Shown: piece after piece, positions 23,885-47,263 of the stretch
How the letters are laid out: the number at the start of each line of letters is the position of its first letter
Position numbering within the stretch: position 1 is the first letter of the stretch
Assembly: GCF_030684315.1 (NCBI RefSeq)
Contig: NC_081387.1
Coordinates: 10,870,822 to 10,934,821 of the forward strand
From: Stegostoma tigrinum
Taxonomy: Eukaryota
Direction of reading: 5' to 3'
Length of the DNA: 64,000 bases
Program-made: the position numbers and the translations under genes
Notes under the pieces: model-generated
Told to the model about the DNA's origin: nothing
What the model saw: only the letters and a program-made list of their open reading frames with translations
The model's database searches: none

Positions 23885-24560
23885 CAGGCCCTAAGATGGC
23901 TTTCCATATTCAGCAGATGTTCACCTGTACATCTGCCATTGCAGTATCCTATTTCCACTGGACCCGGCGTGTCTTCCGCGACATTGGGGAAACTAAGCGG
24001 AGGCTTGGGGACCGCTTGGCAGAGCACCTCCGCTCGGTTTGCAAGAAACAACTGCACCTCCCAATCGCGAACCATTTTAGCTCCCCCTCCCATTCCTCAG
24101 ACGACATGTCCATCATGGACCTCCTTCACTGCCACAATGATGCCACCCGGAGGTTGCAGGAACAGCAACTCATATTCCGCTTGGGAACCCTGCAGCCCAA
24201 AGGTATCAATGTGGACTTCAAAAGCTTCAAAATCTCCCACTCCCCCACTGCATCCCAAAACCAGCCCAGCTCGTCCCCTGCCCCCACTGCATTACAAAAC
24301 CAGGCCAACTCGTCCCCGCCTCCTTAACATGTTCTTCCTCTCACCTTTCCCCTCCTCCCACCTCAAGCCGCGCCTCCATTTCTGCCAACCTCATCCCGCC
24401 TCCTTGACCTGTCCGTCCTCCCTGGACTGACCTATCCCCTCCGCACCTCCCCACCTACACTCTCCTCTCCACCCATCTTCTCTTCTATCCATCTTCGGTC
24501 CGTCTCCCCCTCTCTCCGTATTAGAAAACCCTCTCCTCATCCCTGTCTCTGATGAAGGCT
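23885..24560 (+). mobile_element. Penelope-like element 3' fragment encoding GIY-YIG endonuclease remnant
   Basis: FHIQQMFTCTS..V.Y....R..IGETKRRLGDRLAEHLRSV...HLPIANHFSSPSHS..LQEQQLIFRLGTLQPKGINVDF is the GIY-YIG domain of Penelope elements. A C/T-rich UTR follows and ends at ctctgatgaagg. Confidence 0.9.
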
Positions 24561-26317
24561 TATGTTCTGCTGACTGTCGGGGCGCCCTCACTCGATGGCT
24601 GGTCGAGAGGCTTCGATTTGTTCTCAGCACAGTTCACGATTCCGAGTCGAAGCGAAGACCAGCAGCAACAGCTTTGAACGAAGCTCTCTCTCTTATGCAG
24701 TGTGACAAACAGCCAGCATAAATAAAGCAGATACAGCAAGACAGAACTGCTGCCTGGGACAGACCACACTTGAGGGGGGAAGAAAACGAAAGAACTGCGA
24801 ATGTTGCAGATCGTGAACAGAAACAAAAGTTGCTGGGAAAATGCAGCAGGTCCGGCAGCATCTGCAAAGAAAAAAAATCATTTTGAATTCACTTTTAGTG
24901 TCCGGTGAACCTTCCTCCAAACGGGGTGAGAAAACATGTGCGGATGTTGTCTTTGGCTGGTGCAGGAATATTTGCAGTTATCATTCAGGGTCATGCAGCT
25001 TTTTATGGATTATTCTGAACTTTCCCAGCATATTCCCCCCTCCTATCCAATCCATGTTCTCTTGCAGATGTTGAATATCATCATTCGCGTTTGGCGATTC
25101 GGCCCATCATATGTTCGACATTTGAAGAGGCCGGTGTTCTTAAGTCGAGCACATCAGCCGACAGAATGGTGCAAACATTAGTACTTCTCTCCTTAAGGTC
25201 GGAACGAATATGTTGTTGTGTAATAACTAAAACAACATCACATGAGGGGATTAAAAAATTCAGTGACGAGATGTAAAACTGCATTTCTCTTGGCCACAAT
25301 GGTTGCAGATTGAGTTAGTGCAACATCAATGAATTGGAATTTGTCCTTTTCCTTTTGAGGTTTTAGCGGCTTCAGCACCGGCAGTGGATTGAATGGTCAC
25401 ATTCTGCACCCGGTCAGTGTCAGCGGGGGCCGCTTCAGCGTGATTCCTCTTTGGGGTTGTGGCCTCAGAGACAGCTTTGGTGGCTGTGGAGAGAGATGCA
25501 TCCCGCAGCTTCTCAGGAAATCCAAAAGCAGTGTATGGGGCAAAAAAATGGAAATTTAGACTAAAGTTATATAATTTGTTTACTTTAATATTTTTTGTAA
25601 TTAAAATGATGATTTGCACATATTTTACAGTATTTTCATAAAGACATGTAACAATAATTTACTTTTATTATTATTACCTGACTGAAAACAGTAAGAAAAG
25701 CAGGGCAACATCAGTCATAGAAACAATAGCTGAACATTAAGGCTCAACAGAACACCAACAGCAGCAATGAGAGGATTGTAAATCTTTGCTGAATCGGCAG
25801 TGAAGTGATAAAACATCAACTGATCCATATTGGTGGAATGATTCAATCCATTTAAGAATAGAAAATTTTACTTCATCTTTATCACATTAAGTGACAATGC
25901 AAATGATACAAAATATATCGCTGATACAAGTAAAACCTTCTGCAGATCCAACTCAGTTCTGTGGGTTCTGATATTAATTATAGTCAGTGAATAAAATATG
26001 ACCATAAGGAATTGTTCACTTGAAAGGCCTGAAATATTCCCAAAATAAACATGCCCTGAAACCAAGGTAATCCTGTTTGATTGTATTCCACTCTGTGAGG
26101 TGATGATTTATTCCTTGTGGTTAACTCTGTTTTAGGAATCTCCTGGTTTGACTGACATGACAGTCGCCGGCCCTTCTGAAAAAACTGCGGAATGTAGGTC
26201 ACGTGTAAGGGTACTCAGAGCCGATGGATTAACTGCAGTTGGTGATGAAACAATGGGTCTGTAAGATTGTAGAAAGTCATTTAGTAGACGCCTTGTGTTT
26301 TCATGGAGAGGCTATGT

Positions 26318-26711
26318 AGACTGGGGTTTATTTTCTCGTTGTAGCAATGGAGGCGAAGGCGAAGAGATTTTTGAAATCACGAGGCGCATGGATTGGGTGA
26401 TTAACCAAGGTATTTTTTTCGGAGGGTGGGCAAATCCAAACTGGAGGGTATAGGTTTAAGGCAAGAGGGGAAAGAAGAAAAAGAGATTCTGAGTCGTTAC
26501 TTTGTCACACGGAAGGTATTGCGTGTTTGGAAAGAGCTGCCAAAGGAAATGGTAGAGGCAGGTGCAATTACAACATTCAAAAGGCATCTGGATGGGGATG
26601 TGAAGTGGAAGTGTTCAGAGAGATAAGAGCCAAATGCTGGCAAAAGGGACGACATCAGATTGAGATGCCTGGAGTTAGGCTGAAGGGTCTGTTTCAATAC
26701 TGCATGACTCT
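26318..26711 (+). mobile_element. CR1-type LINE 3' end
   Basis: FVTRKVLRVWKELPKEMVEAGAITTFKRHLD, the CR1 ORF2 C-terminus, followed by the tail ggctgaagggtctgtttcaatactgcatgactct. Confidence 0.85.
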
Positions 26712-27719
26712 TCAACGCTACATGAAATGTTAACACTCAGTCCCCGGACAACATTCAGTCAGTTGGTTCATCCAAGAACATGATCCCAGGATCCCTCTCC
26801 GTGTTGCATAATTCGTTTTGCAGTGTCAATGGGTAATGATTCTTTTAGTTCTGGTTTTCATTACAAATACATGTTCAAAACAAATTCAGTGGAATCCTCT
26901 GCATTATCAGCCTGGAGCTTCACTGGTATCACAAATATTGTTCCTATCCAATTAACATGACGTTGCCTTTCATCTTTCTTGATTATGAGCCAATTTAAGT
27001 TACAGGAAATTAATTCAGTTTGCCCTGACAGAAAAGGAAATGAATTTGACATTCTCATGTGATCTACTTTGGTCAAATCAAGAGCGAACAGAATACTACG
27101 ACAAGATGTGGCAAAACGCATCCAGAATTCTTTATTTGAAATTTCACAATTCTCACTCATTTCAATCTTCAGCCTCATATATCCGACGCCAAACAGGCTT
27201 CCATCATTTTAGAGGACGTTTTGCTTACCTTTGAAAAGTAGAATGAGAAAGTCAAATTCAACATTTTAAAGACTATTGTATTCTCTGTGCTTCACATTCC
27301 AGTTCCTTCGTCTCATACACTGAATTGTTCAAGAGAAGCAAAAATCACCTGGCTCTTCGAACACTCGATTCATTGATTAAAAAATCAAATTAAATAACTT
27401 CATTGTGTTACATATCTAGATTCGTCAGTTTCTTTTTTAAAGCAACGTTTTACACATGCAGTCAATGCACCTGATTTTGGAGGACACGCGGACAGATAAA
27501 GTTGGCTACTGCAAACTGACTTCATGCAATTTGAACACGTTACGACGCGAAGGCAGAGAACACCGAGTTGTTCTATACTTTCAAACACTGCATTGACCTT
27601 CCGGATTGAGCGAATTGAGTTCAATCAATTTGTTTTAAAAGCTGAGATGTAACAGAAAACAGCACAGCACTGTTGAACAAATATGCGGCGACCACTTTTA
27701 GCAAAGGACAAATTCACCT

Positions 27720-27942
27720 AAATAAATACAGAAGTTGCTTGAAAAGTTCAGCAGATCTAGCAGCACCTGTGAAGAGAAATCAATATTAATGTTTCGGGTC
27801 CGATGGCCCATCCTCAAAACCGCACCTGAAGCATTCTTTCTGGTTTCGCTCTACGGATGCTGCCAGGCCTGCTGAGCATTTCCAGCAATTTCTGTCTTTT
27901 TGTTCACAGCATTTGCGGAATTACAGGATCCGCAGTTCCTTC
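27720..27942. mobile_element. Degenerate inverted pair of Penelope-family tails (paralog ~53999-54221); single minus tails also at ~24780-24875 and ~51060-51155
   Basis: acagaagttgcttgaaaagttcagcagatctagcagcacctgt pairs imperfectly with acggatgctgccaggcctgctgagcatttccagcaatttctgt. Confidence 0.6.
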
Positions 27943-28879
27943 AGTATTGACGAAAATCTCCGAGTAGGCAATGCAGTTTCTTCATCACTATGTTTATCTT
28001 CGATCGCAGAGTTTTCATGTTTCATCTTTTCACCTTCAGGATGGGCCCATTATTATGTATTCATTCGGTACTTCAATTACATATGAGTAATTCCTGGACA
28101 TTTTTGACACTCATTTCCAATTCTGGTTTCTCCTCTAAACATCTGATCTGCTGAAAGGACTTCTGTCCACATTCTCCCTACATGTAACTTAAACATCATT
28201 CTATCCTTGGGATCCAATCCTGAGCAATTTTTGAACGCAGCAATCTTGTTTCTTTTGTTCTATTGCCACTGAAAATGCGAACGGGAGGCACTGATGACTC
28301 TGTAAGAGCGGGCCGAGGGACACGAGGCTTGTGTCACTGTGCACACAGGACAGCAGACAGGACTCTGTGAATCGGTGTCACCAGTCCTAGTCAGAGAAAA
28401 TAGATTAATCATTGTTCTCATTATTTATGTCAGGTTGAGGCGGACTGCAGTAGTGGAGTGACTGGACGCAGACAGTGTCCATGACATGAGTCCACATAAG
28501 ATGCTAAAAAGACCAATTTAGCAATATTGATGTATCTGATTTAGAACAGACATACCACATTGAGATTTACACTTCTATCCTGACTGAGAATAGATAGACT
28601 ATACTCTGTCAGTATCACTGGGCCTGAGGGAGAACAGACTTAGCACATTGTGTCTATGTCATTGCCTCTGGAGCAGAGCAGGCTACTTTGTTTCTTCTGC
28701 ATGGAAAAGGGGGGAAAGCGCGCCCAATATCTGCATTATTTAAACTCCAAAATCCTCTGGGGTGACAGAGAGTTTGCTGAGAAGAATGACAGCATTTCTT
28801 AAACACAATGGTTAAGACATTAAATTAAAATTGATTTCTGATGCCTTGAGTTCATCAATGACTCCCATCGGAAAATATA

Positions 28880-29766
28880 TCATGCAATTTGAGAAAAGGG
28901 ATATTTGGCCACACTCTTCAACTGCTCTCTGAATTTAGTTTGGATTATGGCATAAATGCATGTATTTGTGCAGCAACTCAGGAGCTGAAGCATATTTCCT
29001 AATCTGCTAATAAAATGAGGTGCAATTGCAGACACATAACCTGAAAACCATAAATGAGCCCACACTGAATATACAATATGTATTGCCCACAAAAATATGA
29101 AATTTCCTGAAATTGCAAATAGTAAAATTATAGATTTCATTCGGTTCTCTATCTCTGTGTCTCTGTCGCTCACTGTATTGCTTTGAGCCCGGAGTCTACT
29201 GCGTGCTTTACTGGAGACCAAAATGTGCCTGACGGTAAAACCATTCAGCAGAAGGATCAGAACAAATGGGAGACATGGAGTTACAGTGCTTTGAAGCAAC
29301 TCGATTATAATCCGCTGCCATACATCAAAAACATCAAATGTTGTTTGACAAAACCAAGGTAAGTTCACAAGTAAATACCGGCCTGTGAATAAAAAGTACC
29401 ACACCGTGTTTTTTAAAAAGCTCAACACAGTCACAGTTCCAAGAACCACAGCCACAGTTTTCTCTGTACAAGACTTAGTTTTCAGTCTCTGGTTGCAAAT
29501 TGCCACAAATCGACCAAACGTGAAAGTGACAGTGAACCACACCGAACAGTCTGTGGCTGCATAAATAAAACATGTGTGGATATTGCACACACGGAAGGAT
29601 TTCAAAAAATTAAAGCGTTTCCAATAAACAATAGGAATCTGCCTCAAGATCAGGTCAGTGATAAGCACGATTAGATCTGCTGCTGCCATGGCCACCAGAT
29701 AATGACTTACACCTTTCGATAGGCCACACTTTCCCCGTGATAAGATCCCAATCGTCACTGCGTTAA
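28880..29766 (-). CDS. GPR139: GPR139/GPR142-like class A GPCR, exon 2, copy 2 (open frame; DRF->GRF; C-terminus 5 aa short)
   Basis: Polypyrimidine tract plus AG at 29768-29767, then (V)NAVTIGILSRGKCGLS..YLVAMAAADL..DCSVWFTVTFTFGRFVAIC..P..LILLLN..LLFAISGNF..LSCCTNTCIY. This gives a 7TM pattern with GPR139/142-family motifs. Confidence 0.88.
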
Positions 29767-32692
29767 CTGAAAGGAAGAGAAAAAAAAACAGGTATATTAA
29801 TCACCTGCTCGATATAATGCTATAAGCCTCTATGATTAATTATAATATCCATGGATATATATTAATAAATCTGTCATATTGTTAACTGCTGTAAACGGGA
29901 CCTGAATTAAGTAAATTCTCAATTATATCGAAGTGTTTATTTATGGGGATAAAACAAAATGGCTGAAAAACATATTCTCGATTCAATAAAATGATTGCAG
30001 TTCTGACAAATGTTTCCCTGTATTTGCAAAATAAAGAATATCATTTTCATATATAATGTAGTGCAGAAGAGGTAAACTGCAATCTGATGATGCAACATTA
30101 AGCTCAATGCTGCCAGCTTCGAGTGGAAGTTAAAATTCATAAAATTCATAAAAATCATAAAATTGCATCAAGAGAGAATATTCTCCTTGAAGTCAGATGG
30201 AAGAAGAAAATGGACAAATTTCCTGTAGTTCGAAAAGATGCATGATTGAATCAGCAAAATCTTTTTCATGCATCAAGTGTTCCGTTCTACTTGCACCGGC
30301 TCATTGGTGGAGGCAGGAGCAGTGCGAACAGGATTAAGGATAAAGCAGACTTTTATCCAAAATGGATGAATATTCTGCAATGCACAGACAGTAAAGGCAA
30401 TGATACCAGTTTTACTAAATTAGCTCATCATAACCTTATGTAAATAATGTCACGATGGAAAACAGATTTCAAGTCTTTTTTTTCAATGACGTGAGACATC
30501 TAAAGTTCTTCTTCCTGTTGTCACGCAGCTATTGGGTATGTACATGAAGGAATGCACACCATAAAATACCGAAAAATTACCGACTTCAACAAAATACCAT
30601 CTTGTATTTTTTTTCACAATCCGGAGATAATGTGAACTGCAAATTAGTGCTTCCACGATCTTACGGACTCCCTGACCTGTAAAATATTTTGGCGTTATAT
30701 TACATCAAATCATTGATTGGAAAGCAGTACACGGAAAGTCGAAAGTAAATACTTCTCAAGGTAAATCACTTTTGTTATGATAACACATTATAGACAGGAC
30801 GAAAAATCGGTGTGATATCAAGATGCTATCAAATGAGCTGACTTCAGAAACATTAGAGTGCGGCTCTCGACACGCTTGTCTGATCAGAGAATCAAGTATC
30901 TGTTTCTTCAGATGGACATATTAACTGTTGAAACGTTGAAAGTGATGATATGCAATTCATTCCACTCAATATACTAAAGCAAGTTCCTCCTGAGAATTAT
31001 TCGCTAGATGTATTGATGTGACATTGTAACAACAGCAACAGAATGGAATACATTATTTAGGAATTCATGTCTGCTTCCAGAAACTTACCAGCAACACCAA
31101 TAGTACCAGGGAGAGGATAGTAAATCTTTTCTATTTCAAAACTGAAGAAAAATATCTCGTCCATCACACTATAACTCCTTTTTCATCCTTGCACTTTCTG
31201 AAAAGCCGTTGATCATTATTCATGCTGGTGACATTGAAACATGGTTTATAAATAGAAGTGGAAATCCCATTGGTGATTGTGATAAAATCCTTGGAGGCTG
31301 GCATTAATTTGCGTTCATGTTGAAAAACAACATGAAACAATTCAAACAAAATAATCACAATGGATTTATGATGATAAAATTTATTAAAAACACAAAATTT
31401 TCTGAAAACTAAAACCGTTTCATTTGAGAAGCTAAGGACAGTACGAAGGGAGCACAGACAGGGGTTTGGTGGAAGGACAGACAACGATGTTACTTCTTGT
31501 CTATTCACAGAATAACTCCTGGGCTGTGGGATATCTGCAACGACATTCCAATTTCAATGGCTGGCTTACCATCCTGAGAAATCTTTCCAAAGGATGACAC
31601 TGTCAAGATCACCACCAAAAATGAAAGTCAGCTCAGATCTAATGGTTGGTTATACGGTAAGAATATTGTCTCCCAAGGATGATGCAATGGAAAGATGTAT
31701 TTGATTGGCAGTTATGATCATGAGCCCTGTATTGGGGCAAAAGGAGGGGGAAAAAACCTAGAATAATGTCATCCAGCCAAGCCCTATTGAGATGGAACTA
31801 CTCCATATTTTGTTCCAATTCCATATCTCTCTCCTTCACATCCATTACGTTGCTGTGGCACATCTCAGTAGAATAGAAAAAAGACCCCGTCTGAGCCCAG
31901 GTGTTTCAATTCTCAAGCATTCTCCATCTGCTAATCCAGCAATTGCATTGATTGGAATGGGGTGGTGGTATTATCTCGACATTAAATCCTTGTGAAATGC
32001 CCTACCAGCAAATAATTGTTGATTAAATGTTGCAAAATAGCTATTGGGCACATTTTCTGGTGAACCACTTCTCACCATCGCCCAGACACAGCAGGATGTC
32101 AAAATAAAAACAAAGGTTCCATATTCTAAAATTAACTCCCTTTCTCACCCACCCAACCCCTCACAGGACCATGAAAATTCCAGAAACAGAGTGAGTTCTG
32201 TATTGGTGAGTTCCCTTCGTTATACAGCACAAACCATCCCCAAACACCCCGCCCAATGTGCATCTCACCAACAACACTACACCCCTTCCCACACATGCAC
32301 ACAGCAACATTTGTCTACCCCAAACTCACTCCTCCAACTGTGCATTAGCATTGTCGGCTTTGTCGAGTCACTGAATAGTTCCAGCTAAGAAATCTGAGCT
32401 TCAGTTGATTCACATCCCAGTAATGTCAAATGTTTGTTATTTGAATGTGAAAGTCTTCAGAGCCACACTAGGCACTCTCATAACAAGGAGTCAACTCACT
32501 GCTGAGTTTTTTGAGGGTCACTTTCATTGTGAACCCAGGACAGGAAATGAGACCACAATCCTGACAAGTCATTCAACCAAACAGCTAACTGAGCTAACCG
32601 ACACTTAACTCTCCAGTTGGCTGATCCAAAAAAGGTTTCCTTGTTCGTTTTCCAAACCTATCATTAGGAAAAGTTGAAAGTAACTGAAAGTA

Positions 32693-32990
32693 ACTCTCTG
32701 GATCAATAGGACCCCTCCCGAACTCTCAACCTACATTTGCCTTCACTGGCTCCAATCCCGTCTCTTTGACCTGTCTGTCTCCTCTCACCCGAGCTTCTCC
32801 TTCATCCATCTTCAATCCTTCTCCCCCTCTATACCATATTATTTCAAAATTCCCTTCCCCCCCCCACCTTTCTGAAGAAGGATCTTAATCCAAAACATCA
32901 GCTTTCCTCCTCCTCTGATGCTGCTTGGCCTGCTGCATACATCTAGCTCGACACCTTGTTATCTCAGATTCTCCAGCAGTTCCTATTATC
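32693..32990 (+). mobile_element. Residual 3' end of the Penelope-like pair after an internal deletion (unit 2)
   Basis: Matches only the distal ~300 bp of the plus arm in units 1 and 3. Confidence 0.75.
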
Positions 32991-35019
32991 TCTGCCATTT
33001 GTGGATTTGCTGGTGATCTGTTATCCCCTAGAGATCCAGCTCCAGACCATGCTGCCTCATTTTAGAGAATATCAGACCAAACCTGACAGTCAATCAAATA
33101 GGTGGAAAGCAATTGATGGAAAGTTTTCAGGAAGGAGGGCCGCAGGGAAGTGGGCATGCTGCCAACAGGCATCCAACAAATATATTAGTTTTGATTTCCA
33201 CTCAGCAACCTCACAGGGAGGAAGTCACTGCTGCGTGGAAATCAACCATCAGAGGCCCAGATCCTTGTTCCATTCATTGATACTTCTCAGCAATGGCTGC
33301 AGACATTTCATGATGTTAAAGCTGTGGGGAAAGAATGTGGGCAGTCGAGGAAGATTTATCAACAGGAGAAGGGAGGTGTCATATAATATTTATTTTTCGC
33401 CCCCACCCCTGACGGAAAGTCACTCATCCTGTCACCAAATGCCTTTTGAATTGTGAAGCCCAGAGAATAGTACCTGAAGCCACACCGGGTTCAATTCTTA
33501 TATTCCCCACGTCGCTATACAAGTATAGATGACTGAGGATTCAAACACCTATCACCCACCCAATAAAAAACTCACGCACACCCCAAACCCTGCCGTTTCT
33601 GAACTCAACATGGAATGAGGGAGATATATCTGACCACGGCCAATTTCAGGGAATTTACATCCCCACACGCTCTGGATTATGATTCCAGGAGGTGCACTCT
33701 ATTCATGAGTTCTCAGTTTTGTGTCCCTGATCATTTCTGAGCAGGAGTGTTTGAGCCAGTAGCTTCACAGTCATGTGGGATTTCTCTCTTTTGTTTCGAA
33801 GCACAAATAGACAAAACATGTTGATTTCTCAGCTAATGTATTTTACTTGCAACTAACATCAAAGTACACGATGTTCGAATAACAGTTATGTTTCAACTAC
33901 AAGCCAATATCATCGAAAAGTTTGTATTATCGACATTTAAGCTCCTATCTGGATCATAAACGTGTATTTGTTGCCATATTTTTAATACATTCTGCATTTT
34001 GTTGCTTTGCTCTCTCCACTGTGAAGCTGTCTTACACTTTAGGTGTCGTGGAACTGTGTTTTACTAATCTGAATATTATTTGTTCAGAAGGAACTGCTGT
34101 ATTCTATGAATCGGGATTCATTCAAATTTTGGTGGGGAAATATCTCTGCTATTGACTTAATCCATCAACTCAACACACAGGGAACAAAAACAAGGTTGAT
34201 AGCTGGCACAACAAAATGAAATGTCAGGAACATGGACGAGCACTTTGTCACAGTATCCAAGTTTCATTCCAGACCTTCAGGCTCTTTGTGACAATCAGAG
34301 CATTTCCAATATTCCACGGATTCTAACTGCCCCTTTTTACACAAATATGGTGGTGGTGGATTATTATCAATAAATGAATGCTTAATTCGTTGGTTTTATG
34401 TTCTTATTCAAGTGAGGATTATTTTAATGCTAATGAAGATGAGTAATTCATTTGAGGAGCCAAACAGATGCATTGACATCAGGCTAATCCCACATGACTG
34501 TGAACAATTAGGAGAGCTCTTCTTTTAATTTCCAAAGACTCTTTCTGAAATAAGGAATTAGCTATTATCAAAATACCTAAAAGACATTTGCTATAAACAT
34601 TCAAAGAGTGTACGATGATGAGAATGTCATGTCATTTAATGATTTGAAGATAGTGGATCTGTTCTGTGACACTTTAGGAAGTCAGTGATATCTTGTTAAT
34701 GAGCACAATATCATCAAATGAAACATTCTCACAGAACAACTTTATGCTGTATTCGATGATGCGTAAATAATAGGTAAGTTTACCATCTCATTCCTTCAAA
34801 AATGTACTCTAATAAGTAGCATCAATTTTACCAACAGGAAGCATACGAATCAGTTGTTATGTTTAAAACGTCATTCAGATCTTATATATAAGTGTCAACT
34901 TGATACATAATCGGGCACAATTAAACTAAAATCCTGCTGCACATTTGAATATAAATGAAGGAAAATCAAGTCAACAATATTCCTGAAAAGTGCACAAAAT
35001 TATACTCGTAGCTTTTCTT

Positions 35020-36435
35020 TCATTTTGTTGTATCGATAATTTTGTACTTGCATGAGAGAAGATTCTTGAAGGTTTTCTTGAAGATGGCATTGCACAGAGC
35101 ATAACAGACTGGGTTGATGGTGCTGTTGATGTAACAGAGCCAATATCCAATGGTCCACATTGTGTCAGGGATACAAATTGAGCAGAAAGTGCTCAACACC
35201 ATCATGACATTGTATGGGGTTCCACTAATGATGTATGCAAGGATGACAGCTAGTATGGTTCTGGTTACCTGATGCTCTCGAGATTTAGATACTTTCTTCG
35301 ATGTATTCCTGTTTATGTTAACTAAATTATGGCGTGTTCTTATCATTGGGACATTCCTTTTCTTCCTGTTGATATTTGGGAGTATTCCTGCTGGGTTGCC
35401 ACAGTCCACATCTTTTTCAAATTTACAAATTCCCTTCATTGAGAAGCAATTGGAGTTGTCAATCCGAAAATAATTTTGTCCCACATAAACACTTGTTTTC
35501 CCTTGGATTGCTTCTTCCTGATTCTCATTAGCAGGCAATGCACTGAGATAAGTTGAATCATGAGTGAGCTCATCTTGATGACTTTGGTCATAGCCATCAC
35601 CTGTCAATTGATCGGGTATTTTGCCACTTTGCACTTGATCATGCAGAGGCACAACAGGAATTGTTGGAATTCTGTTATTATTTGTTTTTGCTATTTTTTC
35701 TTTCACTGGGCTAGAAGAAACTGTGGAATTACTTGTTTCAGGTGCTGTTTTATCTTGTTTAATTCGGCATTTGCTTGCACGAGATATGAATGTGTACAGA
35801 GTCACCATGATTATAGCAGGGAGATAGAAAGAAGCTGTACCGATACTGAGAGTGACAGCTGGATTTGAGAAGAATTGTACATAACACTCACCTTCGTTAA
35901 CTGTCCGCTCCCCTCCGATGTACTGCCAGAAGATAATGGGCGGCGCCCACAGGATAAATGGCAATCCCCAAGCAGCTGCAATCATCATCAAGACCATCTT
36001 CGGTCTTTCCTTCACAGGGCAGTGAACCGGCTTTGTCACGCAGAAGTAGCGATCAAGGCTGATCATGAGGAGGTTCAAGGAAGAGGCATAGCTGACAACA
36101 TAATCTACAGCAAACCAGAAATCACATGCCACTGGACCCAGAGGCCAGTATCCAACCACAATGTAAACGGTGTATAAGTTCATAGAGAATGCACCAATAA
36201 TGAAATCCGCACAGGCTAAGCTGAAAATAAAGTAGTTATTAATAGTTCGCAAATGTCTGTTGACTTTGATAGATAAGAGCATCAGAATGTTTCCAACAAT
36301 GGTCACCAAACTTAGAGATCCTGCTGCAATAACAATGAAGATCATTCCCACTGTATTACAGGAACTCCCTCCTGCAACATCAAACAATCCATTAGTGCTG
36401 CAGTGAGATTCATTTGTCTCCATTACATTGGTCAT
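35020..36435 (-). CDS. CHRM2: Muscarinic acetylcholine receptor M2-like, copy 2 (471 aa)
   Basis: Same motifs as copy 1, with intact YWPLG, DRY, PYN and NPVCY. ATG at 36435. Confidence 0.95.
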   Translation of the reverse strand: MTNVMETNESHCSTNGLFDVAGGSSCNTVGMIFIVIAAGSLSLVTIVGNILMLLSIKVNRHLRTINNYFIFSLACADFIIGAFSMNLYTVYIVVGYWPLGPVACDFWFAVDYVVSYASSLNLLMISLDRYFCVTKPVHCPVKERPKMVLMMIAAAWGLPFILWAPPIIFWQYIGGERTVNEGECYVQFFSNPAVTLSIGTASFYLPAIIMVTLYTFISRASKCRIKQDKTAPETSNSTVSSSPVKEKIAKTNNNRIPTIPVVPLHDQVQSGKIPDQLTGDGYDQSHQDELTHDSTYLSALPANENQEEAIQGKTSVYVGQNYFRIDNSNCFSMKGICKFEKDVDCGNPAGILPNINRKKRNVPMIRTRHNLVNINRNTSKKVSKSREHQVTRTILAVILAYIISGTPYNVMMVLSTFCSICIPDTMWTIGYWLCYINSTINPVCYALCNAIFKKTFKNLLSCKYKIIDTTK

Positions 36436-37719
36436 CCTTTTGTCGTGATGCACAGATATCAAATCCCTAAATGCATGAAAGAAAGGAAAGATTGCAATAA
36501 ATTGTAACTTCACAGGGCTGTGTTTATGGCTGTTCTGAAATTTCTAACATCAAGAGGACCAAAAGTAGTCTCAACATATTAACTTCATTCTCTTCTCAAA
36601 GCGACACACTATTTGGTTTGAAATTGTCTCGGAAATCACTATTTTAAAAATTATCTAAGACAGTCAATTACTTTTATTTAATAAGTGAAGATGTGCTTGG
36701 TAACATAGCAAACGTATAGCCCAGAACCAGTCTGAAATAACCCCATGCAGGCTGTGTGCTGTCATCCTGAATTGACATGTACCCAATACACGATGGTGTT
36801 CGAGCACACTGAGATCCAGCTTCTCGGGTGAACAGAACCCCACTCTCCTGTTTATATCCGTCATCCAGGACTCCTGCATCCTGCAAGTCGGTCTCCTGGC
36901 CGGGCATGGCGGAGGCTCAGCACCGTGCGGCAGTCTCTCAGTGGCCTTTGGTCCAATGTGGCCTCAGCGTGAACTTCCATCCTCCAGGTGATTACAGAGT
37001 GGTCTCCCGGCCTTGTCAGCCTCCAGGTGAATCCCAGCGCGGTCTGGAGTCAACGCTCAGTGGGGACTGGAAGCTTTTGGGAGCGTGGACTGGGTTTGAA
37101 GGACTCTTTTGCTGAACATTTTTATTTCTCTCTCTTTTAAAAAATTTATTCCTATGATCTCTAATACTGGATTTTTTATTTCTTTATTTCCCTGCCATGC
37201 CACCCCGCCACGAAACTTGAACTGAAGACTCTGTAACTATCTGCATTTTTACCTCAGATGGTCCTATTAGGGGCGATTTGTAAACTTTTTGCTGTACACT
37301 TTTGAGTACATGTTACAACAAAGCTAAATCTAACTCAAGATTAGACCAGTCCAAATCTGGGCACTCACATTCTATGATATCAACCTCTTTGACTCCATTA
37401 AAATCACGACATCCTTCCCACTCTGACTCCTGGGTTGTGTGATACTTTCGTCCCAGTCCCGGATCCTCTGACTCTGCCTCAGTTACGGGCCAGTGTGTAC
37501 CAGACCATGGACTATGCTTTGCGCTGGGAGCACATCAGGAAAATTCATCCTTTTTCTCAAGCGGTGATGGTGTTGAAGCTCCATCACCTGCTGTGTCCCA
37601 TCTAGGACTCGGAGGTTCCTTATGACGCCTGGTGAAAGGAGGTATCCACGGGCTCTCACAAACTCTCCGGATACTTTGACGGGCCAGGGATGTTGCTGCC
37701 CCGTTTATGAGGTTGCAGC

Positions 37720-38410
37720 TTTCTTCTGGTCCAAGTTCCAATATCCCAGGAATTGGTCCACCCCGTCACACCATCTTTTCATCCACAGGTTTATCTTACA
37801 TATGGTACTGTTTCTACGCTGACCAGCTCATTGCACTGGAAGTAGTCCTGACATAACCACCTTTGAGCGCCTGCATTGCAACTTTCTTCGTAGATCTCTA
37901 TAATCTGCTTTCAGTGCCCATCCTTTCGGGTTAACCGATGTCATTTGCACCAATGTGTACCACAACCAGTAGCTGTTCACCCTCCCGACACAGAATGTCA
38001 TGCAACCACTTCAAGACATCCAGGACCCGGAAACAGGGAGGGAACACACCATTCTGGACTTCCATTTCACAAAAACTCCCTTTATAGTTGAATCCCCAAT
38101 TACTGTTGATTTCTGTGCGCAAACTCCCTCCCACGACAGCAGAAACAAACATGCCCCCATGACGTTTGCTGCTGCTGTTGTCCGCTGGATGCTGTTCCTC
38201 TCAACAGTTTACCAAACGGTGTATCTGTTTCTCAGGGGAATAGCCACAGGAGACCCCTGAACTGCCTGCTTAGCCCTCCTGTCTGGTGTCACACATTCCC
38301 CTCCTGCCCGTGGTGTCTGAGTCTACAGTGTTACCACCTCTCTATATGTGCCATTCATAATAATCTCCACCTCACAAATGCCCCACCGTGTCCCCAGGCG
38401 CTGGTCAAGG
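37720..38410 (-). mobile_element. CR1-type LINE ORF1 esterase relic, unit 2 copy
   Basis: Paralog of 10640-11330 (LVVVHIGANDIG). Confidence 0.75.
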
Positions 38411-39164
38411 TACATTTGGCGAAATTACATTTTGGTTCTACAATTAGTCAACAGTTGAAGGAAAGGATATTCACTCCTTTGATTCTTTTATGTTGATATA
38501 ACTGTTGCCCGTGACAGAATTGACTTAAGATGGCCACCAGCGATTTCTCCTGTAAAGCCTTGCCCCTTTAAATTAATTATTCCTTACAATGTCAAATACA
38601 TTTAATACTAGATTGTATCTGATGATGCTCTCTGCTCCACTGACAATTTCATGAAAAGTAACTAACACTCACCAATATAGTTTCCAGAGCTGTTTCACGC
38701 CACGCTTCTTTGCTGCGGAAGTTACTCTCAAATTGTTCTCTCTCCTCTCCTCTGAACTTTGCCCAACTTTTGTTTTGGTAAGCAGAGGAAGGAGGGATAA
38801 AAACATTGCAGTAACGTAATCTTTGGGCTGACCGTTCCTCAGCACCATGTTCTCCCACGATGCCTTTCTGACTGCGAAATCCATTCCCAGAATGAGAACA
38901 CTCGAACTCGCAGCATGCTCAGCTTGCATCTCTCTAAAGCTATTTCGCCCTTCAGTTTTTGGGTGTGAGCCTGTTATTTCAATCAGTGCTAACTGAACCA
39001 ATTGCTTCTCAGAAGACAGCAGAACTGATGTTATGGTTAGTTAATTACTAATGGTTGGCTTTCCCCAATACAGATTCTCAGCCTGGCTGAGGTCCTAAGC
39101 AAACTGACGGTTTGGAGTTCAGAGAGAATTTTGGTAAAGACTGGTTCCACAGTAACTGATACAA

Positions 39165-40360
39165 TATCAACCTCTATTAGAACCAGGTGACCATTTAATC
39201 AAATATTTATTTTGATTGGTTCTGATTTGGATGTTGTGAAGCAGTTTGCCTGTTCCAAACCAAATACTGGTGCATTTTCCAAGGGGTGCAGTCATCTGGA
39301 TACTGGCCTATCCATTCTCTCACTAAATTCAGGTTTGGTGGGACTCATCTCTGTCTCAAGTCCACATACAGGTAGCAATTAAAATGGCCTGCTGACCTGG
39401 ATGCTTGAGAAAATGTTAACCATTTGACCGTGGCGTGCCTTTGTTTTGGGTCTTCGCTGTGGGGGTTGACCTCGAGTCACTCTGTTCAGGATATCTCCTG
39501 AGTGAGGCTGTGCAATTGCTCTTACCCAAGCGATGTTTTCCCAAGTCCCTCAGCCTGGCAAGGATGTCCACTTGCGTCAGAGTGCTTTGTAACTCATGAG
39601 CATCACTTGCATTTTCTAATGACAAAGTCAGTTGTATTGCCTGTTTGAAATCCAGTTGGGCTTCAGCTGTGGGTGAACACATCATAATTCCAAAACCAAA
39701 TGGTCTCTCAGCAACTGACTGAGATTAAACCAAAATCACACGCCTGTGACAGCCATCCTAACCATGGCAAAAATCCTGACATAGATTACACTGGATCTCA
39801 AAGTGCAATGTAAAATCAATAGCATCTCAGAATTAGAGGAGGCTTGGGGTCATGATATTCTTTTACAAAATCTGTCAATTTTTGAAAGGTTTATGCATTT
39901 GGTGCCTCAAGAAACATTAGGTTCTTCATACTGAAATAAGCTGCTGGCCCACAAGCTGCTTACAGAATTACTCAGTCCTTTTCGGCTGCCCCAATGTCAT
40001 TTGCCTTGAAAAATAAAGCATTCGTTCCACATACTGGGCCCTAACGTCAATGGCAGGATCAAATGTGTCAAGCATCTGAAATGGCAATATGACTCCAGAA
40101 ATGCTAACCTGAGCTCAAACACAACTGTTTCGAATGAATCCCTTCAGGAGGGTGTTTCTCCCTCATCACCACTGAAGTAACTCGACAGAGGCCAGTATCG
40201 CATCACCAACTCACCGTTTAGTCACACATGTATTCTGCCTGACACTGATCCAGTTGGCTCAGAGTTGGCTCTCAGAACTCTTGATACTTCTGTTTATGTT
40301 TGATACTTCTGCCAGCCAGGGCTCCTGATTAAATGAGGTTAACAACCCCACTCAGGGAGC
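39165..40360 (-). mobile_element. Ty3/gypsy relic, unit 2 copy
   Basis: Paralog of 12180-13390. ORF 39416-39685 reads AEAQLDFKQAIQLTLSLENA. Confidence 0.6.
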
Positions 40361-41459
40361 TTGACACATAAATAAATTGCTACTTGTTGATTATCAAGTA
40401 AGTGGCAGAGAAATGTTTTAGTTAACCACTAGTAGTTGACAAAAGGCAGGTTACACCATTCGAGTATGACATCCACCCCTCTGACCTCGTTCCAATCTCT
40501 GTTCTGTCTTACTTCATTAAGTACATTTCGTGAGATCGGGTTTTGGCTTTGCAAGCTTTCAACCACTTAAGGAAAGATGATAGTCACTCCTTTGATCCTT
40601 TCCAGCTGATATAACTGTTGCAGATGCCAATGACTAAGTTGGCTTAAATTGACCACCAGCCACATTTTAGCTGGCATAAAATGGCCTGAAGGTTGTTGAC
40701 AATTACGGTTGACAGATATTCACAGTAAGACTTTGGACCTCCATGTACGATTACCGGATAAGATAATGAAAGGTCTCAGTGAGAGAAGAGAGGAGAGTGT
40801 AGTCCGTGAGGCTTCCTTGATAGGGGAGGCATAGATGAAAACCTTTAAGCAAACTAATATAAAAGTTCAACTTAACATACAGTGGAAGGGAACAATTGAC
40901 CCACTTACTTGAAACATTTTCAGGCATTTTTAAAATGCATACACTAGAGTACACATATGTATGTTGAACGAAAATTAAGGCTTTAGTTTTGACATCTCAG
41001 TATTCAGGGTCTTTAATTTGATTTCTCAACTCCAAGCACACCTGCATTGCTCATAAAAAAAGAACTTTGAAATTGCTAAACAGGAGACAGTTATTAACAA
41101 GCAATCGATATCTGTGGTTCAAAGAACGAAAGGAAAAGCATGACGGCACAATAATCTGGAAACTTTGGATAATTGTCATTACATAGGAAATATATCCACT
41201 TGAGTTGTGCGAAATAACATATGTGAACTTAAAAACTTCCATAAAGGAATTTTGTTGAATTCTTATGAGCAGTCAATCATGGACACTAGAAGGAGACCTC
41301 CTGATTAGCGGGAAAGATAGAGCAATAGATGGTGAAAACAGACAACTTGTAAGAGAGCAAAGAGGTTGCAAGACATGGAACATGAGCAAATATAACTTCA
41401 CAGCTCCGCACACAGATGGCTGTGAATATGACTGAATTTCACCCTTCTCAATTGGGCTT

Positions 41460-42310
41460 GCGAAAGGGGACTCTTTTAGAATTAGCAGCCTGGTTAAAAT
41501 TTGGCTGAACTTGGGACAAGAACAAAGCTGAAGTTCGAAAGCAGTTAGCCTCAAATTTGGGTATATAAGAGCAACAGTCAATTACCGTGGATTGGAAAAA
41601 ATTGAATTGCACATTTGACAATTAGAGTTACGGGACAAAGAAAGGGAAAGTTGATTACGAGTCGTGGAAAAAGAGAGGGAAAGAAGGACCCAAGCTGAAG
41701 AGAAAGAAAGTAAAGAAGAGAGAATAAAAAAGGAGAGAATGTTTGAGTTGAAAATTATGAAGTTGGAGCTTGAAGGAATAAGACTGAAAATGACAAAAGT
41801 AAAAATACAAGATAGAGGTGATGATGAGCAAAATCATCATAGCCAACAGCCTGTTAGGGTAACTGCGAAAAAGCCCAAACGTTATCAAAATGTGATGAAA
41901 AACACATCAAAGCTTTTTTCATTACTTACGAGGAATTAGCTGAACAGATAAACTGGCCAGAGACTATGTGGAGAATGTTAACTCAGACAAAGTTGTTAGG
42001 CAGGGCTAGTGATGTGTTTGCAGCACTGTCAGAGGAGGTCTGAAGTGAATATGAAGAAATAATACAGACTATTTTTAGTGCTTGTGAATTCATACCAGAA
42101 ATATTTTGATCAAGGCTCCAAAATATAAGAAAAGAACAGTTCAGGCATTTATTTTATTGAATAGAATTAACAGAACAACATCCATAGATGGTTGAGAGCT
42201 TCAAAGACAGAAAGATAAATCAGGATATTAGAGGTATTACTCTGCTTGAGGAGTGTAAAAACTCCTTTCCAGAAAAGATAATAACTCAAGTTGAGGAGCA
42301 GAAAGTTAAA
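41460..42310 (+). mobile_element. Gypsy-type gag/SCAN-like relic, unit 2 copy
   Basis: Paralog of 14480-15420 without the 91-bp insertion. Confidence 0.7.
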
Positions 42311-43597
42311 GCTGTCTCAGGCTTGCTGCAGTGTCCCAGTGAAGTGCAACATAGGTTGAAAGAACAACACTTCAATTTCCACTTGGGGATCTTGCAGCCC
42401 TCTTGACTCAGTGCTGAGTTGAACAATTTTGGTGCCTAAACTCTCCCATATCCGAGCCCCCATCCCCATACACCAGGCCTTGTCTACCATGACATGTTAC
42501 CTATTGTTAGCCACTCAGTCTACAGGAACAACTATTCATCCTCTGAGCCAGATCAATTCTACATTTCTTTGTCTGTCCAACTGTTGTTCACTATCTGTGG
42601 GCTCTCTCCCCACCAATCAATTCTCCTTTCCCCTTCTCCCACCCTACCTGCCGCATATAAACCGGCATTTTACTGGCTAACATCAGCCTGAAGGAAGGGA
42701 CACCGGGCCCAAAATGTTAACTCTGGTTCCTCTTCACAGGTGCAGTCAGATCTGCTGAGATTTTCAGCTACTTCTGCTTTTGTTTCTGATTTACAGCATC
42801 CATGGTTGTTTCAGTGTTAACGACGTCTCAAATCCAGTCCAGTGTCTACAAGGCTCACATCAGTAAAATTTGCCAAATTCCCAACTCGTATGGATAAGTT
42901 TAAGTTCAAAAACATTCAGGAACTATCCAGGACAAAGCAGCCACCTTGATTAGCACCACTTCCACAAACAGTCAGCCCTTCTCCCACTAGTGCTCAATAG
43001 CATCAGTGTGTCCGATCTGTAAGGTGTAAAGCAGAAGTGTCTACAGCTCAAAGGTGTTTTTGCACGTCACATGCATTATTTACTCCCTATTATCAGATTC
43101 AACAAAACTGTAGTTATGAAATAAGGTGTGATGTCTCCAACTGTAATCTTAGGAAGGAATATTCCACTGAAAATGATTCTGGAACCAATGAACTTTCCTG
43201 AGAGAAACTTGCTCAGCAAATAACCAACACGTACATTGTACATACGCCTGCAACTTTTTTTTCTGACAAGCAGCAAACAGGGAACAATGCATACTGACCT
43301 GCAAACAAAATCATCCTTATTTACAAGTCCAGTATTCGTGGCACTTTGTAATCTGGCGCTAAAAAAGACAATTTTATTTTCAAACAAACATATTCAACAT
43401 GCTTATCAAGCAAATAAGCTTTAACTGACATATCATACAGCATTTCAATGAAGGTGGCCCCAATCCCAGGGGAGTATCTCACGCAAAGTGATCACTTCCC
43501 GAAAGCTTTGACCGTATGTCATTGCCTAATCTTCCCAACATCAATCAAGCAACGTCAAGATATTAAATGGCCATCCATGCAAAATATCAGGTCATCT

Positions 43598-43885
43598 TTA
43601 GATTTCGATTCCCTACAGTGTGGAAACAGGCCCTTTGGGCCAGCAACTCCACACCCGACCTTGAAGTATCCCACCCAGACCCATCCCTCGACAACCCACA
43701 CACCCCTGAACACTACGGGCTATTTTGCATGGTCAATCCATCTAACCTGCTCATTTTTGGACAGTGGGAGGAAACCGGAGCACCTGGAGGGAACCCACGC
43801 AGACACGGGGAGAATATGCAAACTCCATACAGACAGCCGGCCGAGGCGGGAATCGAACCCGTGTCCCTGGCGCTGTGAGGCTGCA
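43598..43885 (-). mobile_element. HE1/V-SINE type SINE, unit 2 copy
   Basis: Paralog of 17309-17596. Confidence 0.9.
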
Positions 43886-45804
43886 TAAGATTTTGGGAAC
43901 AAGATGAGACAAGTCTTCACGAGCTGAAAAGCAGACGCAACTGCGAAACAACATATCACAAAATAAAAGTCAGCAGGGATCATGCTGCAATATAGTGGAT
44001 GAAATATTTTCATCACTGATTCTAATTTCACCTTTCCAAAATCGGCTGTCACCAAGCCAAATGGAACAGATGGTCTCATCTGAAATCAACAAATTTCTGA
44101 AGCTGCATTTTAATTATGACGGACCAAGAGGAAAATGCCCACCTAAAAGCATTGTGGATATTAACGTGTGACCTTATTGTCTGCTGCTGAACACAGTGAT
44201 TGGCAATCAGTTACATACATTGTAAAATTAAAATAAATACGCAGGATGAAGTCACACAGGAGAGAAACCTCTGGTATGGCAGTTGTGGTGTTACTCTCAC
44301 TGAAACGGAATTTATGCACTTTAATCTCACACCAGAATTTTCCCTTTTTTGCCGAGCGTAGGTGTATTTCCCATATGAACAACCAAGTCGGTTTGCAGTC
44401 TCCTCCTATTCGCGAACGCCAGGCGGCAAGCAATGAGTGCAGGAGAATACTCCTGGACAAGCCATGCTGCGTGCACCAGCGTGAAACTTCTGCAGTACTT
44501 TGTCAATGAGTGTGGAATAATCATCTGGGTATCGTGACTCGAACCTCAGAAACCAGAATGGAGGGAAATACAGGCAGACAATATCGCACAGCAGTTTGTA
44601 AATGATGAAAGAAATTGCAGCGGGAGATCTGACAGTTTCATTCACTTCTCAGCGAAAATAAATGACTATGTTGCAAGGAATCATGCTGGAAAGGAACGTT
44701 TCGGGGAATGAGAAGCAGGTCTGGGAGTAACGTATTTATGCAACTTAGTGAGAGATTTCCTAAACTTAAGCAAGCACAGAGAAATTCAATTATTTCAAAG
44801 GACAGATTGGAAAACGTTCCTCAGAAACACATCAACTTATATTTGGGACGCAATTAAAACTTTTGCCAAAAAGTAAATCATTTAGGAAACAAAGCAAAAT
44901 TCCACCGAATCAGATATGGCAGAACATGAGCTAGATGACTGGAGATGAACCCCAAACCATTAGAATAAAATGTCTCGCAATGTATCTGTGTTCTATTTAT
45001 TCACGAATGTTGCTTAAACTTTGCATTATTAACGTTGCCCGAAAACAGAATTGTAATCTGTTTCAGAGACTTGCAGAAATTCTTAATCCGAAAAAAGCCG
45101 ACATTGCTGAAAAGATGTCATGAAAGTGGAGATATGTCATTCATTGATCATCGAATTAACAGGTGAAGGTGTAATAATTCACTGATCCAGATTTGAATGG
45201 AAGACCTTTCAGTAGATTGGATGGGAAGAGGTAAAACCTCTCTCGGAACTCAAAAACATCCATGACAAACAGGCTCAATTGATTGGCCCTCGATCTACGG
45301 TCTTGGACAAATCACTCGGTGCGCCACTGGTAACACAGGACCAACAGTGTGCATCATCGAAAAGATGAACAGCAGCAACACATCAAAGCTGATATTTCAA
45401 AATCCGGTCCGCCATTACCTCATAAATGCATGGGAACACATTGATCTCAAACGTTTTCTCCAAGGCTGATCACCCCGATCGCAAATCCTATCATTGTACA
45501 TTCACGGTTCCTGGATCAAACCTTGGAATTCCTTCCTTGAAATCACCATTGACGTGCGACGTCCTTACAAATGCTGAGAATCAAGAAGACAATGCGCCAC
45601 CACCGTCTCTGCAGACACTAGAAATACTCAATAACTGCCCAGAGTGACGACACCTACACTATTTAAGCAAATATTTAGAGAGCAATTAAATTAAATCCGA
45701 CTATCCCTCAGAAGGAGTCCAGCAGAGTGCTTGGGTGCATTGATCTAAAATAAGACAAAAAGCCGTGAGAATACAGTTTGTGGAAATGATCAACGCAGAC
45801 TTAC

Positions 45805-45940
45805 CAGGAACAGCAATGACAGCGAGGACAGGATAGTAAATCTTTTCCAACTCAGTTATGAAATAATATTTCAGCCACTGGCCCATCTCTGAGGAATGCC
45901 AAGCAAAGTCCTCCCACTGACACTCAGAGACAGCTCGCAT
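45805..45940 (-). CDS. GPR139: GPR139-like exon 1, copy 2 (ATG at 45940 or, more likely, 45886 MGQWLK)
   Basis: Encodes MGQWLKYYFITELEKIYYPVLAVIAVP, then G|GTAAGT, a canonical phase-1 donor at 45804. It joins in frame with exon 2 (G+TT=Val, giving ..IAVPVNAVTIGIL..) for a 322-aa (or 340-aa) protein. Confidence 0.82.
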
Positions 45941-47263
45941 TCAAAGGGATCCAGTACTAATAGTAAATGGAAATCCTCCAGGGACACAAATTTGTTCGTT
46001 TGAGTCTTACGTCAATTACTGAACAAACAAGCCTGGTTAATTGATTTACTTGATTAGATTTGGCCACATTCGGTTTTGTCACAATACGTAGTCCTTAAAG
46101 AAATTGACAGCAGTCCCAGGTTGAGCTCACACAAAACACCACAAATGTCGTCCTTTCATCAAGGTAACAATTGATTCGACTGATGTTCGTGACAAGGCAA
46201 GTCATGGATATTTTTTCCAGCTTGCTTGCAGGTGTCCCAGGAGATGAGGATCCGAAATAGTCCATAACACACTGACAATGTATCCGCATTGCTGTCTTCG
46301 GGAACTTAATTGTCATCATTCCCGTGAATATGGCTGAGCAGCAATTTGCCAGAATGGGCAGAGATTGAGATGAAAAGAAAATGAAGCAGGAAGAGAAGTG
46401 ACAGAGGAATGTGGGAGACCGAATCGGTGATGTCACATGTGGACTATAACTTTCTTTGATGTAAGAGGGGTTCCCAAGCCAAAAGTAAAACAAAATGACC
46501 TGAAGTAGCCTGAGATGACAATAATGAGTCTCTTTTCGTCGTTAATAAATGCAGCATTTTTGCCAGAGCTCTGCTCTTATCTCAAGGAGAAATCTGGCCA
46601 GGTGTCCAAGGTATTTCGCTTCTGTAATAGCGGCAATCGAGATCCTTATAACTAAAATAATGTTATTGCAAACATTGTCATTGGGGAACTGGTGTTGTCA
46701 TCAGTGTCAGGAATGAACCTCAGACCACATCACTTATAGAAAGATCATCAAATATTAACAAATTACTTCGTATGAATCTTGTTTGCGCAACTTGCTATGA
46801 GTTCTTCAACAATCCATCAGCCAAAAGAGTTGAGATAAACCTCAAAATTCGAATCCAAATATATCTTGTCAAAATATATGATTCAATATTGTTGTTTATT
46901 ATCCTACACCAGATAAGCTCGGATTCCCCGCATTGCAATCAATAAATCCTTGAGCAAGAAAATCAACAATTCCTCTTAAATCCAGTGTAATAAGAAATCA
47001 CTCCACAATCCGACAGCTGTTTGCCCCCAGTTGAGCTATTCACTGGACAAGTTATATGCAAGGCTGAAAAGTGAGAGATCAGATTTTGATTTGCTTTGGT
47101 TTTAGTGGTAACCATTACTTTAGTCACTTAGTTGGATGGCTGTTTCTGTTGGACGATGATGCCAACAGCATGGATACAAGTCCCACACGAGCAAGAGGTT
47201 TCCATGAATGAATTTCCTTCTCTTCTATCCCCTTGCCTCAGGCGTTACCATTCAATACCAGAG

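Follow-up and report, generated by a model that had tools for sequence, protein, structure and literature searches.

CHRM2-derived receptors with a changed orthosteric pocket in a tandem array of the zebra shark genome, possibly serving a ligand other than acetylcholine

The window analysed here, a stretch of 64,000 nucleotides of the zebra shark (Stegostoma tigrinum) genome, holds three of seven tandem copies (L001-L007) of a CHRM2-derived receptor gene in which the toggle-switch tryptophan W6.48 is replaced by Gly or Ala. These copies sit in tandem units of about 27 kb with 93.6-97% mutual identity. The focal reading frame (35020-36435, minus strand) is open and intron-less and encodes 471 aa. 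The features of the window are as follows.

35020..36435, minus strand: coding sequence of the focal CHRM2-derived receptor (L001), a single coding exon of 471 aa within RefSeq model P0123
36079..36105, minus strand: TM3 pocket face, with D3.32, Y3.33 and S3.36 kept and Y3.37 and S3.40 new
36103-36105, minus strand: D3.32 codon, kept
36088-36090, minus strand: N3.37Y codon (TAT)
35830..35844, minus strand: TM5 pocket face, with I5.42, G5.43 and S5.46
35221..35223, minus strand: codon 6.48, Gly (GGA) replacing the toggle-switch Trp (TGG)
36436..36490, minus strand: 31-nt leader with a pyrimidine tract and acceptor AG (36467-36468), similar to the main acceptor in canonical CHRM2
34889..35019, minus strand: 3' flank, about 130 bp still alignable to the 3' flank of canonical CHRM2
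45805..45886, minus strand: orphan GPR139-type first exon of the focal unit, 27 codons, with intact ATG and phase-1 GT donor
28880..31164, minus strand: GPR139-like gene of the focal unit (exon 1 31089-31164, exon 2 28880-29767), with a stop five codons early
7930..9345, minus strand: second copy (L004), frame open, with R3.50H, ECL1 Trp to Cys and N6.52Y
19517..19598, minus strand: orphan first exon of the L004 unit, GT donor lost
929..3213, minus strand: frameshifted GPR139-like copy, first exon without ATG
62034..63446, minus strand: third copy (L003) of 470 aa, sharing 97% identity with the focal one
55145..57454, minus strand: complete GPR139-like gene of two exons (exon 1 57379-57454, exon 2 55145-56047), duplicated along with each unit
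52031..52108, minus strand: decayed extra GPR139-type first exon, donor lost, with a twin at 25751-25828
16763..58726, no strand: core of the tandem segmental duplication of about 27 kb (16763-32437 versus 43050-58726, 96.5%)

Repeat-derived open reading frames, presumably Penelope/GIY-YIG-like, are found at 23896-24327, 50175-50606, 59411-59797 and 43563-43943, and a short element of very high copy number in the window reaches a depth above 200,000 in public DNA runs. Codon 6.48 was checked against public DNA reads in three runs from one sample, possibly the assembly's own; contigs of runs X2 and X4 span the codon, and no difference is listed there. Runs X1-X4 have even intron coverage and behave as DNA. 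An assembly artefact or haplotype duplication was ruled out as the origin of the copies by the divergence between the tandem units.

The focal protein was compared with a human M2 chain and with the CHRM2 protein of the same genome (L008), to which it is 57% identical, Ballesteros-Weinstein numbering being set by motif anchoring; its best matches among solved structures are human M2 constructs (E 3e-155). Against both references, the residues listed as retained in the original prediction are indeed kept (D3.32, Y3.33, S3.36, W4.57, T5.39, Y6.51, W7.35, Y7.39, C7.42 and Y7.43), as is N6.52. Its substitutions are equally present (N3.37Y, V3.40S, T5.42I, A5.43G, A5.46S, F6.44Y and W6.48G) and are common to all three window copies, with position 6.44 being Ser in the copy at 7930; V6.55M is a further change that had not been listed. 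The cation cage (D3.32, Y3.33, Y6.51, Y7.39 and Y7.43) and the DRY, P5.50, Y5.58 and NPxxY motifs are intact, and the focal copy carries four private changes, including Tyr to Cys in ICL2 and L3.29F. Over a list of 17 orthosteric positions, taken in part from published passages, the focal protein keeps 11, whereas none of the 17 varies among the 34 canonical muscarinic receptors examined, an invariance that excludes a chance origin of the substitutions. A low-confidence AF2 model of the focal protein (mean pLDDT 50.5), too poor for pocket geometry, has a TM-score of 0.83 (by target) to active M2; the 7TM class A fold that it gives and the single coding exon are both in keeping with membership of this receptor group.

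The three changes listed for L004 had been missed in the original prediction, and this copy, with a branch dN/dS of about 2 (2.1), is probably decaying. A pseudogene would show damage to its core motifs and a dN/dS close to 1; this profile is found in L004 but not in the clade of W6.48G receptors as a whole.

The window belongs to a CHRM2-like cluster on contig C44 (9.38-10.96 Mb), and canonical CHRM2 lies elsewhere (L008, on C22). The search of the zebra shark genome scored 90 of 416 candidates, so that gene counts are lower bounds: at least 18 CHRM2-like genes with long frames, together with five broken ones, lie within the 813 kb examined of a 1.7-Mb region, and at least five canonical muscarinic receptors, each with 17/17 pocket positions unchanged, lie on five other contigs. 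Two of the 18 are doubtful, L015 being frameshifted after its native ATG and L020 lacking most of ICL3. The locus translations are exact matches to RefSeq S. tigrinum proteins named 'M2-like'. Members L009-L020 (G000:C44 9.38-10.37 Mb) keep W6.48 and have swapped other pocket residues, namely N6.52 (to F, H, D, V, S or I), Y3.33 (to H), S3.36 (to G, N or T) and Y7.39 (to N or Q). Several of these pocket sets have counterparts in whale or bamboo shark, with one-to-one sharing for L016/P0166, L018/P0171, L011/P0175 and L013/P0170. Of the expanded amine-sensing repertoire that the original prediction held to be plausible, the expansion itself and the diversity of pockets are real, and it is larger than could be seen from that vantage (at least 18 intact genes), with tandem lineage-specific expansion, pseudogenes and pocket diversification all present in the cluster.

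Some single loci were also noted. L020 (G000:C44 9596776-9597717) has lost nearly all of ICL3 in frame, with its 7TM frame open, and carries P5.50L and Y7.39Q. One repeat unit (G000:C44 10769946-10779767) has kept the orphan first exon and the GPR139-like gene and lost the CHRM2-like exon, and L023 (G000:C54 3459728-3460705) is CHRM1-like, with a short ICL3, a canonical pocket and a long branch.

A tree of 87 proteins was built with the pocket columns and position 6.44 masked and with 40 redundant or outgroup rows omitted. A single clade (98/98) unites 48 M2-like rows from sharks; its sister group is CHRM2 of the carpet, mackerel and ground sharks (97/86), and horn shark CHRM2 falls outside that grouping (98/93); the M2-like family has a single origin, in galeomorph sharks. 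The focal gene descends from CHRM2 and not from CHRM4 or CHRM1/3/5, and is separate from shark CHRM2, of which L008 is the orthologue, grouping with M2a of other sharks. Canonical shark CHRM2 is highly conserved (18 proteins fall in one 90% cluster), and the objection that it might itself carry the new residues does not hold, L008 being unchanged at 17/17 pocket positions. A lost third M2/M4 ohnologue was excluded by the tree; in a synteny look-up, a PTN/MK domain was found beside CHRM4 only.

The W6.48G clade (100/100) comprises receptors of the zebra shark, whale shark, two bamboo sharks and the epaulette shark, and its sisters, L015 and L012 (group 96/95), already have S3.40 and I5.42. Of the seven zebra shark copies five entered the tree, and because one W6.48G protein was retrieved per other species, the seven look like a recent amplification. 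Y3.37, I/V5.42, G5.43, S5.46, G/A6.48 and M6.55 are fixed across the clade (11/11 members, five carpet-shark species), as are D3.32 and the tyrosine cage (11/11), and N6.52 is kept in 10/11; positions 3.40 (S/F/C) and 6.44 (Y/S/F) are variable. The changes were thought to predate the duplications; they do, and are older still, being common to the whale, two bamboo and epaulette sharks. The bamboo and epaulette shark models of the W6.48G orthologue (P0005, P0125 and P0126) lack the native N-terminus and may take their start codon from an exon further upstream.

DNA homology to canonical CHRM2 passes the acceptor into the intron, in some members as far as 122 bp 5' of the ATG, and extends downstream for 130-210 bp in several. 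Because it thus covers part of the intron and of the 3' flank, the founder was a DNA copy; a retrocopy is excluded by homology running past the acceptor into the CHRM2 intron. As to whether the promoter of CHRM2 itself stayed behind, no collinear homology was found over approximately 41 kb upstream, an absence that carries little weight at such divergence.

Selection on 279 core codons was estimated with our own GY94 implementation. The dN/dS ratio is 0.018 on canonical branches (the CHRM4 branch being saturated), 0.30 on other cluster branches, 0.32 on the stem of the W6.48G clade (a value of 1 rejected, 2dlnL 25.4) and 0.48 within the clade (1 rejected, 2dlnL 15.7, p=7e-5), falling to 0.40 when L004 is left out (2dlnL 20.9 versus 1); for L001-L003 jointly it is 0.49. 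The ratio is higher inside the zebra shark array (0.48) than elsewhere in the cluster (0.30), and the youngest pairs range from 0.3 to 1.6 with few changes; dS to canonical CHRM2 is 0.6-0.76. The W6.48G clade is under purifying selection, and a dN/dS near 1, which would have pointed to simple decay, is not what was found for it.

Interspersed among the members of the cluster are GPR139-like genes, which are class A GPCR genes of two exons resembling GPR139 (E 7.5e-5 to the human protein); in a structural comparison, a bamboo-shark homologue has as its nearest neighbours entries named 'probable GPCR 139'. This family is very large, with 4159 first-look candidates on many contigs and 141/141 scored matches at E <1e-103, most with intact second exons of about 312 aa, and it may be the larger story; among titles in the literature on shark GPR139, nothing relevant was found.

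A lone GPR139-type first exon lies 8.9-12 kb upstream of 7/7 W6.48G copies, on the same strand and with no second exon between (7/7). For the focal copy it lies 9.4 kb upstream of the coding sequence, again without an intervening GPR139-like second exon. These seven orphan exons have an ATG and an open frame in 7/7 cases and a GT donor in 6/7, and such an exon is also found upstream of L016, L018, L019 and L020. Over the 18 intact genes, the upstream neighbour is an orphan exon in 11, a GPR139-like gene or pseudogene in five and neither, within 21-28 kb, in two. Between distant members essentially only the orphan exon itself aligns (74-81%), the neighbouring class of extra first exons is decayed (stop in 3/7, donor lost in 2/7), and a search of about 40 kb upstream of canonical CHRM2 gave no match to a GPR139-type first exon. 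The arrangement suggests promoter capture via a GPR139-type first exon, at which transcription would start.

Splicing of this exon to the receptor would differ between members. L016, L018, L019 and L020 have an upstream acceptor whose frame matches that of the phase-1 donor; canonical CHRM2 has this acceptor as well, which makes it ancestral. RefSeq models P0115, P0165 and P0005 join a GPR139-type exon to a CHRM2-like exon; these joins may be ab initio, and a search for further chimeric models with residues 1-70 of P0115 returned only P0115. In 7/7 W6.48G copies, the focal gene among them, the orphan exon and the -31 acceptor do not share a reading frame, and joining them would create an upstream ORF of 29 codons that stops 23 nt short of the receptor ATG; in this clade the captured exon would act as an upstream ORF, with low output. 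Alternatively, the orphan exon could splice to a downstream GPR139-like exon.

At roughly even odds (a probability of about 0.5), sequence comparison points to the focal gene being a CHRM2-derived receptor under purifying selection, likely working and Gi/o-coupled, with a likely preference for something other than acetylcholine, the best candidate being a short amine resembling choline. The CHRM2 coding exon was copied as DNA, together with the end of its intron and its 3' flank, into the GPR139-like cluster on another chromosome, where it has radiated; Gi/o coupling would be inherited by descent. In acetylcholine-bound M2 and M4, the trimethylammonium group rests on D3.32 and the tyrosines at 3.33, 6.51, 7.39 and 7.43, and a water molecule bridges to N6.52 (passages of PMC9870890 and PMC10229135). 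In the focal receptor this head group would still be held by the cation cage; residues at the floor of the pocket and around its acyl end were replaced and then fixed, and the replaced positions (3.37, 3.40, 5.42, 5.43, 5.46, 6.44, 6.48 and 6.55) are at its deeper end.

Without W6.48, acetylcholine would be a weak or null agonist. At M4, W6.48A abolishes acetylcholine efficacy in one study (passages of PMC6115637) and strongly impairs it in a separate one (PMC10229135, in part); in M3 it raises the acetylcholine EC50 only from 0.5 to 4.0 uM, or 8-fold (PMC6115637), and rotation of W6.48 is reported as unnecessary for activation of M2 by acetylcholine (a passage of PMC9870890). Gly at 6.48 is compatible with signalling in MRGPRX1, where it packs with Y3.36/F3.37 and allows an inward tilt of TM6 and a shallow pocket (passages of PMC10435460), and G6.48 of the focal receptor might permit a similar tilt, giving a shallower site. 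In mTAAR7f, Y3.37 limits ligand size or packing between TM3 and TM5 (a passage of PMC11364543); here Y3.37 might occupy the TM3-TM5 space vacated by G5.43, and S5.46 could give a hydrogen bond to a hydroxyl. With the acyl subsite closed or reshaped, a short choline-like ligand would fit best. The net change in side-chain volume ranges from -202 to +36 cubic angstroms across clade members, and because the members disagree, pocket size is unpredictable.

It is rather unlikely that the focal protein is still a receptor for acetylcholine or choline, of low affinity or efficacy and used, for example, at high local peripheral concentrations. The 11/17 retained pocket residues include the whole cation cage and, in 10/11 members, N6.52, which are acetylcholine contacts in the M2/M4 structures (PMC9870890 and PMC10229135, in part), and the loss of W6.48 costs M3 little. 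Set against this are the fixation of six pocket changes together and the silencing or crippling effect of W6.48A on M4, which is the Gi-coupled sister subtype (passages of PMC6115637 and PMC10229135), as well as the replacement of N6.52, Y3.33 or Y7.39 in other cluster members, which argues for several ligands.

Codon classes were compared across the 18 cluster genes. The dN/dS ratio is 0.43 (0.33-0.55) for the 17 pocket codons, 0.17 (0.15-0.19) for 89 other canonically invariant codons, 0.044 for 18 signalling-motif codons and 0.42 for the remaining 155 (LRT p=9e-8, permutation p=0.002). Changes shared by all 11 clade members affect 6/17 pocket positions versus 8/107 other invariant sites (Fisher p=0.004, or p=0.019 when 3.40 is excluded from the pocket). 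Positive selection at individual sites is unsupported (M1a/M2a p=1.0, M7/M8 p=0.75) in our own implementation of the site models, with fixed topology, branch lengths scaled from M0 and gene conversion outside the model. Pocket-focused change with a held signalling core fits altered specificity, and also fits relaxed constraint on the pocket, because the pocket value of 0.43 is no more than that of variable sites (0.42).

The second of these options would suit a ligand-free protein, either a constitutive Gi/o receptor or a non-signalling partner or sink, with its pocket released from constraint. Strong motif constraint beside a pocket that evolves like variable sites, the undetected positive selection and the variation of 3.40 and 6.44 in the clade all agree with it, and the raised acetylcholine potency of V3.40A at M4 (in a table of PMC6115637) hints that small residues ease activation. 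It is nevertheless improbable, since D3.32 and the tyrosine cage persist in 11/11 members and the fixation of six new residues in five species is hard to understand without a ligand.

Also improbable is that the copies simply ride along with the GPR139-like array, in a slow process of birth-and-death decay, their frames kept by slow shark mutation and gene conversion: this agrees with the five broken copies, the unit without a CHRM2-like exon, the state of L004 (DRY and donor lost), the spread of dN/dS in the youngest pairs and the GPR139-like gene that travels with every W6.48G copy, but is disfavoured for the clade by dN/dS well below 1 on the stem and in the clade at such dS from canonical CHRM2, by intact orthologues with identical new residues in four other species and by the motif constraint of 0.044, although individual young copies, the focal gene among them, may still be decaying.

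In textbooks the orthosteric site of muscarinic receptors stands as an example of invariance. A study across vertebrates (PMC6298421) derives all muscarinic receptor duplications from genome doublings and finds the acetylcholine-binding residues conserved in every sequence that it examined; the word 'cartilaginous' is absent from it, and sharks and rays contradict both statements. No literature on the shark M2-like expansion or its pocket changes was found in a search whose coverage largely leaves out subscription journals, and the main text of a shark genome preprint (10.1101/2022.10.17.512540) mentions neither 'muscarinic' nor 'GPCR'. The genes are already in RefSeq as 'M2-like', and the expansion is real, conserved and apparently undescribed. 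If functional, these receptors would be a natural library of signalling-competent M2 pocket variants, an aid to understanding activation without W6.48 and to orthogonal receptor design; they also offer a directly testable case of neurotransmitter receptors turning into sensors.

Stingrays and skates have expansions of their own, annotated in RefSeq as 'M2-like' and, like the shark family, consisting of multi-copy CHRM2 derivatives (P0044, P0070, P0074 and P0146-P0161; P0079 and P0188-P0194). The stingray expansion is nested in batoid CHRM2 and is independent of the shark clade in the tree; a single origin with the stingray Y3.37 receptors was rejected, the log-likelihood of a joint clade being 92.9 lower. 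Stingray members share Y3.37, G5.43 and often S5.46 with the focal clade but keep W6.48 and have Ser at 6.52 and Cys at 6.44; one skate member has L6.48 and H6.52. Single paralogues of basking shark, catshark and bamboo shark likewise have another residue at 6.48 (F, L and A). Y3.37 occurs in 29 of 114 rows counted, with about three independent origins, and is accompanied by G5.43 in 28/29 and by W6.48 in 18/29. The idea that Tyr3.37 compensates for the lost Trp6.48 is weakened by the 18 sequences that keep W6.48, and Y3.37 pairs better with TM5; MRGPRX1 provides a partial precedent for it. Because stingrays gained Y3.37 and G5.43 and kept W6.48, there is a hint that 3.37 co-varies with TM5 and is not simply a replacement for the tryptophan.

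A wider and distinctly more tentative proposal is that galeomorph sharks possess a new family of amine sensors made from M2, in which an exon captured by GPR139-like first exons and promoters radiated to different quaternary amines. This would be a second TAAR-like origin, with stingrays partly converging and the carpet-shark branch signalling without the toggle tryptophan.

By descent the focal receptor is a CHRM2 paralogue and, judged by the invariance of the pocket, a non-canonical muscarinic receptor. CHRM2 is its direct ancestor, the focal gene being nested in shark CHRM2 and sharing with it the single coding exon, a related acceptor and 3' flank, the cation cage and the TM6 VT..IL stretch, which has a role in Gi/o choice. 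Unlike CHRM2, it lies on another chromosome in a tandem array, with 6/17 invariant pocket residues replaced, W6.48 among them, and a dN/dS of 0.3-0.5 in its lineage versus 0.018 on canonical branches (with the CHRM4 branch saturated). The muscarinic DREADDs are engineered receptors with the mutations Y3.33C and A5.46G. The link drawn to them in the original prediction survives only in that 5.46 is altered, as the focal receptor is natural, keeps Y3.33, has Ser and not Gly at 5.46 and carries many more changes. TAAR/TARL olfactory amine receptors arose from a serotonin-receptor-like ancestor and are comparable in that a brain aminergic receptor gave rise to tandem single-exon genes that keep D3.32 and differ in their pockets, with pseudogenes among them (passages of PMC8890504), and Y3.37 is also found in mTAAR7f; in contrast, the focal family derives from CHRM2 and not by TAAR/TARL descent, and the TAARs of mouse and human have W6.48 without exception (PMC11364543, in part). 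The MRGPRX itch receptors also have a natural G6.48 and aromatic TM3 residues that pack on TM6 (passages of PMC10435460), but they are kin to the focal receptor only as class A receptors and the analogy is structural only, MRGPRX1 having Y3.36/F3.37 and G6.52 where the focal receptor has S3.36/Y3.37, N6.52 and an aminergic cage.
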